Origin: Escherichia coli
Lineage (GTDB): Bacteria > Pseudomonadota > Gammaproteobacteria > Enterobacterales > Enterobacteriaceae
Length of the DNA stretch: 64,000 bases
Direction: 5' to 3' (one strand)
NCBI RefSeq assembly: GCF_965641715.1
Contig: NZ_OZ282453.1
Shown here: positions 55,301 to 58,300 of the stretch, piece after piece
Position numbering within the stretch: the stretch's first letter is position 1
Layout of the letters: every line of letters starts with the position of its first letter
Program-made: the position numbers

Positions 55301-58300
55301 CCTGGCGTTCGTCTCGGACGTTTTTGCCGCTTTCGCGGAATTGCCTGCCGCTGTTGCCGAGGAAGCTGCGCTACTGGCGCTCGAGGATGCGTTCGTTTCT
55401 GATGATTTTGCCGCCTCTTTTGAAGCCGCCGCATCCCGGGCTGAGGTGGCAGCTTCTGACGCTTTCGTAGTCGCGGTGGATGCAGAAGTGGCTGCTGATT
55501 GTTGTGACGCTGCCGCATTCGTTTCTGACGTTTTCGCGGCACTGGCACTGGTAGCTGCCGCGCTTTTTGAGGACTCTGCAGCGGCAGCACTTTTTGATGC
55601 TTCAGTGGCCTTTGTTGATGCCGTTCCTGCGCTGGAAGTCGCTGACTGAGCCGACGACGCGGCCTGTCCGGCTGACGTGCTGGCTGCGCGTGCTGAGTCC
55701 GCAGCATCAGTCGCATGGGTTGCCGCCTCACGGGCTGATGTGCTGGCATCACTGGCTGACTTCTTCGCGGCTGCCGTGTTCTGTGCCACCACGGACGCGT
55801 TACGCGCCACCTCTTCCACCATCAGCTCAAAACGGCGCAGTGCCTCCGGACGGGCATCATCCTCCGTCATGGCACCGAGAAAATCATTCAGCGTACCGGG
55901 TCGGGAATCTTCATACACGGTGATGGTCCCGGCATGTGACGGCGGGAATCCTTCCACCAACAGAATAACGCTGTACTGACCGTACTCAACGTCCATGCTG
56001 TAACGCCCGGCTTCATCCGGATTTTCTGAGGCCAGCGTGTTCACCACCACCGTGGTACTGTTACGTTTTGCTTTCAGCTGGATTGTGCAGTTCTGTACCG
56101 GTTTTCCTGTGCCGTCTTTCAGTACACCTGAAATCTTTACTGCCATATTCACCCCACAAAAAAGCCCGCCTGAACCGGCGGGCTGTCATAACACTGTGTT
56201 ACCTGGCTAATCAGAATTTATAACCGACACCCACGATGAAACCGTCAGTGCGCCAGTCACCACTGCCGGAGCCTTCATAAGCGACATCAATGGCCACGGA
56301 TTCGGTCGGGTTAAACTGCACGCCAGCCCCCCACGCCAGAGACGTGTTGCTGTGGCGACCGTCATCACTTCCGGTCAGCACGTCGTGCGTTTTCCCCTTG
56401 TTATCAGTTACGCGGAGATAATCCCCGGAAAAAGTCGACACACGGCTGTAAGCCACACCCGCCATCGCATACGCGCTGAACCATTCATTCACGCGCACAG
56501 ACGGCCCCGCCATCACGCTGAACCAGCGGTTACGCACGGAATCTTCATGCCAGCGGGTATCGCTGTAACGGGTCAGCTGGCGATTCTTGTCTCCTGCATA
56601 GCTGAACGACGTCACCATCCCCAGTGTGTCCGTAAACTCATAACGGTATTTCACGTTAATCCCGTTCAGATCATCGCTGCCGGGGACGTTCGTCGAGGCA
56701 TGAAGATAGCCCGCGCTCAGCGTGGACTGATGTTCAGACGCCCATGCAGGCGCACAGGATGCGGCCAGACAAATGGCTGCGGACAAAATGGCGGCATAAA
56801 GTTTACGCATAATTACCTCTCGCTTTTCTGCAATAAAAAAGGCACCATTTCTGGTGCCCTTATCTGGGTTATAAATATTTCAACGGATACTGATACCGGA
56901 AGCCGCTTTTTTGGTCACTATCACCGTACAGTCTGTGATGTTACCTGCACCCTGATTGCCTTTCTGGAAAATCCTGAACTCCAGGGTGACGTTCCCACCA
57001 CCACTCGGCATATCAATAACCGCGCTGTAACTCCCGGGAACTGCCCCTCTGGTTTCTCTGGATGCGATTAAGACACCGTTTTTGCGAACTTCAAAACCAT
57101 AACCCGTGTACCTTGTACCTCCCGGGTTATTACCGCTCCCCGGATTGTCATACGCCACACCGTTAAAAATAATGGGCGGAATAATGATTTGACGGTCAAA
57201 GTTATGATCATCGCTGATGGTGACGGTAACCGTCCCGTCGGGTGTTTCCGTGTTCCCCCACGTACCAGCCCTTTTCGGGAATGGTCTGGATACCGCTTTA
57301 ACGAAGTCCCCCCTGACCTGGTTCGCCTCCAGCATGCCCTTAATCGTACAGTTCTCATTTACCGTGACGTTGTTGAGCGTTCCGGCGTTCGCGTTCACGT
57401 TACCGCTGATATCCGCATTTCTCGCCGTCAGCCGACCGTCAGGTGTCAGGGAAAATGCCGGTGGATATCCACCGCTGGTAATGGTGGGAGCCGTCAGATA
57501 TTTCAGGAACACTTCATTCATGAATATCTGATCACCCTGACCAACAAACATCGGCTTTGTGTTGCCATTTGCAGGATTAATCATCGCAATCCTGTCTGCC
57601 GCCAGCAGCACCTGACTCTGCATGCCGTCGGGGGTGTTCTCAATACCGGCACCGATACCCGCGATATAAAGGCGTCCGTCCTGCATCTGCTGCAGCTTCA
57701 CAGCCCACATGCTGTTCAGGTTATTACTTGTATCAACCTGAACCTGCTGTATCTGCTGAATTGCTGCACTCTGGTCTTCCAGTTTCTTATTGACGGTCTG
57801 TGTGATTTCATTGCTGACATCCGTAATGGACGTCCTGATTTCAGCCAGGTCAGGCGCAAGCTGACCGTTATCAATCTGCGTCCACAGCTCCTGAGCCAGA
57901 TGGGTTTTCCCTATCTCGCCTTTGAAAAAATCCAGATAGCCGGATGCGTCATCACTCGGCTGACCAACAGCCTCCACGAATGCCGATTTGCCAACGGTGT
58001 TCACACTGCGAACGTAAAAATAATAATTATGGCCCGGTTTGATATTGATACTGGCGGCTATCCAGTACAGCGCCGTGCCAAGATAGCGTGCTGTGGTTTC
58101 AACCTGCCTGATATCCGCAATCCGCTTTTCCGAGAACCAGAACTCAAACTGTACCGTCGGATCATAAACGGCAAGATGCGGCGTTGCGGTTATCTGAAAA
58201 TAGCCCGGCGTCAGCTCAATCCGCGACGGTGCTGCCGGTGCGGCAATCCGGAACGATACCGACGCCGGATCGCCCTGCTGCCCCCAGGCATTTGCCGCCC

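Follow-up and report, generated by a model that had tools for sequence, protein, structure and literature searches.

A mosaic tip attachment protein J in an Escherichia coli lambdoid prophage carries a 434-type receptor-binding domain that probably recognises OmpC

The DNA analysed here is a stretch of 64,000 nt from Escherichia coli (hereafter the window), which ends inside the tail genes of a lambdoid prophage. On its minus strand lies gene J, an intact ORF of 3,498 nt and 1165 codons whose translation runs through all 3.5 kb without a frameshift; identical sequences are labelled 'phage attachment tail tip protein J' in RefSeq. A search of the protein against Pfam found six gpJ domains above the curated cut-offs (PF24801, PF13550, PF24421, PF24489, PF09327 and PF12421), arranged in the lambda order (FNIII-A, hub/Phage-tail_3, two Ig/FNIII domains, tail-tip fibre and C-terminal receptor-binding domain, RBD). 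A phmmer search of the PDB matched lambda gpJ (8iyk) at E=0. J is a member of the lambda-type tip attachment protein J (gpJ) family. Its position in the tail gene cluster (L-K-I-J-lom-stf) is also the one expected for this family: the ORFs upstream match the Lambda_tail_I and JAB/NlpC (gpK-like) families, lambda and 434 share the order I-J-lom-stf, and J, lom, stf, I and K are all intact ORFs within the window. The coordinates of these features are collected in Table 1. At the place of the hairpin listed there, the record of phage Ayreon carries an annotated terminator, in the same position relative to J. We found no tandem repeats in J, lom or stf. We do not regard a 698-aa ORF antisense to J (window 57189-59285, plus strand) as a gene; a comparable antisense ORF, of 564 aa, is present in lambda J, and the one in the window is most likely a by-product of the codon usage and composition of J.

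Table 1. Position of gene J, its modules and neighbouring features in the window
Feature	Residues of J	Window coordinates	Strand	Basis
Gene J (tip attachment/central tail fibre protein), intact	1-1165	56880..60377	-	ORF, Pfam and PDB phmmer
Module 1, lambda-like: hub domains and two FNIII/Ig domains	1-812	57942..60377	-	aa and DNA identity
Module 2, aligned to lambda alpha-helical shaft and upper beta-prism fibre	813-960	57498..57941	-	Alignment
28 extra residues (21 + 7) relative to lambda and 434, helical-shaft region	within 836-866	57780..57872	-	Alignment gaps
Conserved linker, lower fibre (...NADISG...NVT)	961-1014	57336..57497	-	Alignment
RBD, assigned to the 434 (h434) type	1015-1165	56883..57335	-	Pfam, alignment, AF2/Foldseek
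Terminator-like hairpin then T-run, directly past the J stop codon		56838..56861	-	Consensus scan only
lom (Ail/Lom outer-membrane protein), next downstream of J as in lambda		56211..56810	-	PF06316, E=2.4e-119
Side tail fibre stf, 800 aa, intact, second adsorption organelle of the same virion		53750..56152	-	PF08400 N-terminal domain

We compared J with the lambda protein (NC_001416, NP_040600; structure 8iyk). A preliminary description of this DNA had claimed that most of J is very close to lambda gpJ and that its final ~150 residues differ. It flagged window positions 56880-57400, 521 nt that correspond to residues ~993-1165 plus the stop codon, and the peptide that it quoted as the start of the difference (GDFVKAVS...) begins at residue 1023. 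Its first statement is borne out by 97.4% aa identity between the two proteins over residues 1-812. The C-terminal difference is equally real: the last 143 residues are 35.6% identical to lambda (53 of 149 aligned columns, with several indels), far beyond what chance would produce, and where high identity would have argued against a change of receptor, we found about 35% with indels. Its start and extent, however, have to be revised. In a sliding comparison with lambda, the DNA of module 1 (residues 1-812) is 0.89-0.99 identical per 100 nt, and identity falls from 0.92-0.99 to 0.24-0.81 past gene nt ~2430, the successive 100-nt segments from gene nt 2401 scoring 0.71, 0.24, 0.47 and 0.62. Scattered changes appear at residues 806-812 and a run of differences opens at residue 821, and the non-lambda part of J accordingly begins at about residue 813 (window ~57940) and spans 353 residues (window ~56883-57941), rather than some 150.

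The modules into which the alignments divide J have different relatives. Module 1 has 98.0% aa identity to 434 J and 98.5% to Ayreon J. In the terms of Ge and Wang (PMC11101478), module 2 aligns to the alpha-helical shaft of lambda gpJ and to the top of its beta-prism central straight fibre, and its identity is 43-44% to lambda, 434 and Tritos, versus 97-98% to Ayreon and cdtI; by tblastn, 60 phage records carry this module at an identity of at least 90%. Judged by alignment, it is of the Ayreon/cdtI/Stx2-phage type, unlike both lambda and 434. The linker that follows is conserved more widely (83% identity with both lambda and 434, and 93-96% with Ayreon, cdtI and Tritos). Because the best-matching relative switches across it in the sliding DNA comparison, we consider the linker the likely recombination joint between modules. 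Shaft and RBD have been combined in more than one way: 434 and Tritos join a short shaft to a 434 RBD, and the J described here joins a long shaft to a 434 RBD. The alignments thus resolve J into a mosaic of a lambda-like hub, a shaft of apparently separate origin and a 434-type RBD, in which the helical shaft and upper fibre would have come from a second lineage, common to Ayreon, cdtI and long-tailed Stx phages.

The 28 extra residues of module 2 amount to four heptads. They are common to the J proteins of Ayreon, cdtI and Stx2 phages and absent in lambda, 434, Tritos and A8. Within the inserted stretch, hydrophobic residues make up 67% at the a/d positions versus 18% elsewhere, a heptad-like pattern, if a weak count. 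The AF2 monomer model of residues 806-1010 draws helices at the insertion with a mean pLDDT of 34, a value at which the drawing is unreliable for an obligate trimer. From the alignment we infer that the helical shaft of this J is longer than that of lambda. In lambda, the helical shaft is the element that flips when the tail tip opens (PMC11101478).

The complete build is not private to this prophage. Ayreon (MF807953), cdtI (AB285204), ev099, Kati, mEp332, PhiR34_1 and long-tailed Stx2 phages have the same three modules in a J of 1165 aa, and among isolated phages whole J genes of the same build and length, at ~95% nt identity, are present in Ayreon, ev099, PhiR34_1, cdtI, Kati, ev243, mEp332 and phi458. 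Over the whole protein, aa identity is 97.1% to Ayreon and 96.7% to cdtI, and the RBD of this group is a slightly different allele, 89-91% identical to ours. Ayreon and cdtI are among the carriers isolated as plaque formers, Ayreon on an E. coli K-12 derivative (PMC5764929). The J of phage 434, in contrast, has 1137 aa and only 43% identity over residues 813-960, where the J studied here is 28 residues longer.

The C-terminal domain of J matches PF12421 (Ig_GpJ_C) at residues 1030-1164 with 88.7 bits (cut-off 26.2), the same Pfam RBD family as in 434. We aligned it, as the preliminary description had suggested, with J proteins of LamB and OmpC users. Over residues 1015-1165 the identity is 91.4% to 434 (138/151, that is, 13 substitutions and no indels) and 93.4% to Tritos, versus 41% to A8 gpJ and 35% to lambda. 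The differences from 434 are thus few, and most of them are conservative. Against lambda J residues ~985-1132, which include the receptor loops, three loop regions contain indels (2, 6, 1 and 2 residues, and a lambda insertion of 6 residues). When only the last 143 residues are considered, 131 of them (91.6%) are identical in 434 J, without gaps. A tblastn search with these 143 residues against 50,697 phage records returned 74 at 80-93% identity and 169 at less than 60%, and no record in that set exceeded 93%. Members of the close group are phage 434 itself (OL657226/OL657227, 90.9-91.6%) and lambda h434 imm21 (OM418627, 91.6%), together with Tritos, PhiR63_1, phage 2851, many long-tailed Stx1/Stx2 phages, mEp460, mEp332 and cdtI. 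Near-identity over the whole length with no indels places the RBD in the 434/h434 class, as far as sequence can assign it. By the same comparisons it is homologous to the LamB-binding domain of lambda yet belongs to a different specificity class, its 35% identity and indels setting it outside the lambda LamB-binding class; at 41% it also falls outside the A8 sequence class.

Structure prediction agrees with the family assignment. In phmmer searches, residues 849-1164 align end to end with solved gpJ chains (E 1e-85 to 1e-95), and among solved relatives the A8 gpJ chimera (9wca, 9wcb) scores highest for the C-terminal region, with 324 bits vs 290 for lambda. The AF2 model of residues 1001-1165 is an all-beta domain with a mean pLDDT of 76.9 (core 80-93). 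Foldseek ranks 1-4 in the PDB were 9wcb, 8xck, 8xcj and 9wca, at E ~5e-14 and TMq 0.71-0.73, and the next matches had an E of 5e-5 or worse. Of these structures, 9wcb is the A8 gpJ fibre in its open form, bound to OmpC of EDL933, and 9wca the closed A8 fibre; 8xck is lambda gpJ in the closed form, with no LamB, and 8xcj lambda gpJ bound to LamB. The RBD is therefore predicted, on the strength of the model, to have the gpJ C-terminal Ig-like/jelly-roll fold. Lambda gpJ (8iyk, 8xcj, 8xck) has the same architecture as the J described here (hub, FNIII-1/2, helical shaft, beta-prism fibre and Ig-like RBD) and the same RBD fold (TMq 0.72); it differs in binding LamB, in its shaft, 28 aa shorter, and in the sequence and loops of its RBD.

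OmpC, and not LamB, is the receptor of phage 434 and of lambda equipped with the 434 J gene (PMC3509688; PMC11101478). For 434, OmpC use is credited to Hantke 1978 where that work is cited in bioRxiv 10.1101/2022.09.30.509847, and lambda h434 imm21 is a hybrid with the classical h434 host-range allele (PMC9119081). The receptor of lambda gpJ is LamB (PMC11101478). Since the RBD in the window is 91.6% identical to that of 434/h434, the OmpC-using type, we propose OmpC as the receptor of this J, with a probability of roughly 0.8. The view of the preliminary description, that the receptor is probably other than that of lambda, is thus supported by the RBD comparisons and appears to be the best reading of them. 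We rejected retention of LamB. A J that is still LamB-specific, its distance from lambda reflecting neutral drift within one specificity, would explain why fold and domain family are shared with the lambda RBD, but fold alone does not fix specificity; the RBD is far closer to the 434 type than to lambda, from which it differs by indels in three loop regions, and in genetic work the 434 type turns lambda from a LamB user into an OmpC user (PMC3509688; PMC11101478), all of which makes this alternative very unlikely. A search for published receptor determinations yielded nothing usable for phages that share the long-shaft 434-type J (Ayreon, ev099/ev243, mEp332/mEp460, phi458, Kati and PhiR).

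A finer question is whether the RBD has been retuned within the 434 type. Six residues are private to this allele in the sense that they are absent from the other four of the five 434-type RBDs that we aligned (K1031R, S/A1032P, Q/K1036R, K1110R, I1113V and K1135R). These substitutions might direct the domain to a particular OmpC allele, for example one typical of porcine E. coli, or to a different trimeric porin such as OmpF, PhoE or OmpN. Natural gpJ RBDs do discriminate OmpC alleles, as 1A2 recognises only EDL933 OmpC and in this differs from A8 (bioRxiv 10.1101/2022.09.30.509847), and a handful of point mutations in lambda J can add OmpF as a new porin, according to work cited in PMC11101478. 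The allele also has a narrow distribution: the 521 nt flagged by the preliminary description occur at 99.6-100% identity in only seven complete E. coli genomes, six of them from pigs. On the other hand, four of the six changes are K-to-R or I-to-V, leaving S/A1032P and Q/K1036R; at position 1036, Ayreon and cdtI have Q where this allele has R. Loop lengths are unchanged relative to 434. Taken together, we regard retuning as unlikely, and ordinary OmpC recognition of the 434 type as the preferred reading. A broader conjecture, that the six substitutions of the pig-associated allele retune the RBD towards an OmpC variant or another porin and that the longer shaft may alter the threshold at which the tail tip is triggered, is at least as doubtful. 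If it were true, the allele would illustrate how the host range of prophage J genes is tuned on a fine scale in nature.

OmpC recognition through this fold has a solved counterpart. A8 gpJ consists of a natural OmpC-recognising C-terminus grafted on lambda J (Brodel et al., bioRxiv 10.1101/2022.09.30.509847); no other PDB entry matched the model of our RBD better, and its OmpC(EDL933)-bound structure shows the gpJ RBD fold docking on OmpC. It differs from the J of the window in its RBD sequence and in its lambda-type short shaft; the fold is shared and the receptor protein probably so. By analogy with the solved open states of lambda gpJ with LamB (PMC11101478) and of A8 gpJ with OmpC, the tail tip could work as follows. 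The hub and FNIII domains of residues 1-812 build and seal the tip, and the distal loops of the trimeric RBD would enter, on its extracellular side, the mouth of a porin trimer, most likely OmpC instead of LamB. Binding would spread the bases of the RBDs, the beta-prism fibre would then twist, and the helical shaft would flip and partly refold; the FNIII domains would finally dissociate, and the tail tip would open for DNA ejection.

We also surveyed how common each type of tip is in complete E. coli genomes. The flagged 521 nt were at least 80% covered at a nucleotide identity of at least 80% in 2,088 of 5,426 genomes, whereas the equivalent lambda stretch was covered in only 96 of the same 5,426, the top matches being DE3-type laboratory strains. 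By this count the 434-type tip is common, and the LamB-binding tip of lambda rare, across E. coli genomes. A 434-type OmpC-binding tip on a lambdoid mosaic is already known biology, a very common allele class and a case of textbook mosaicism, and our analysis has little import beyond annotation, in that it names a probable receptor (OmpC) for the virion of this prophage. The map of modules (hub, shaft, linker and RBD) could help in designing swaps of the gpJ C-terminus for the retargeting of lambda-based delivery particles, although isolated phages already provide equivalent sequences in the public record.

One end of the prophage adjoins the potB stop codon at 53316 (junction 53310-53320). 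The closest complete genome is that of E. coli EC416, from a pig, in which potC is found at the far end of a ~56-kb prophage, past integrase and excisionase genes. Because potB abuts one end and potC lies ~56 kb away in EC416, we place the element within the potABCD operon, at the junction of potB and potC. Beyond stf there is no intact tail-fibre assembly gene: the 430 nt before potB (53317-53749) are full of stop codons and contain a remnant only of tfa, and EC416 has a 90-bp tfa fragment at the matching place. The stf product has a long middle part rich in Ala, Ser and Thr; over the distal 310 aa it shares 75% identity with the tail fibre of Cyrano, a P1-like phage, and 46% with P7 gpS. It is conceivable that the prophage is defective and that J is no longer used for infection, its receptor specificity being of historical interest only; the stop-ridden tfa remnant speaks for this, as do the pseudogenised stf and the interrupted large terminase gene of EC416. 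Weighing against it, J, lom, stf, I and K are intact in the window, and J has kept its reading frame over 3.5 kb and 97% aa identity to the J of viable phages. We hold a defective prophage to be possible, if the less probable state. It would concern present activity, and is compatible with the OmpC-type reading of what J binds. The split of the EC416 terminase gene is due to a ~16-kb insert (EC416 ~4250-21975, outside the window), which has an integrase gene of its own along with a DUF927 primase-like gene, genes for capsid, portal, protease and small terminase, and a copy of IS1414; it resembles a satellite, or a second element, nested in the prophage.
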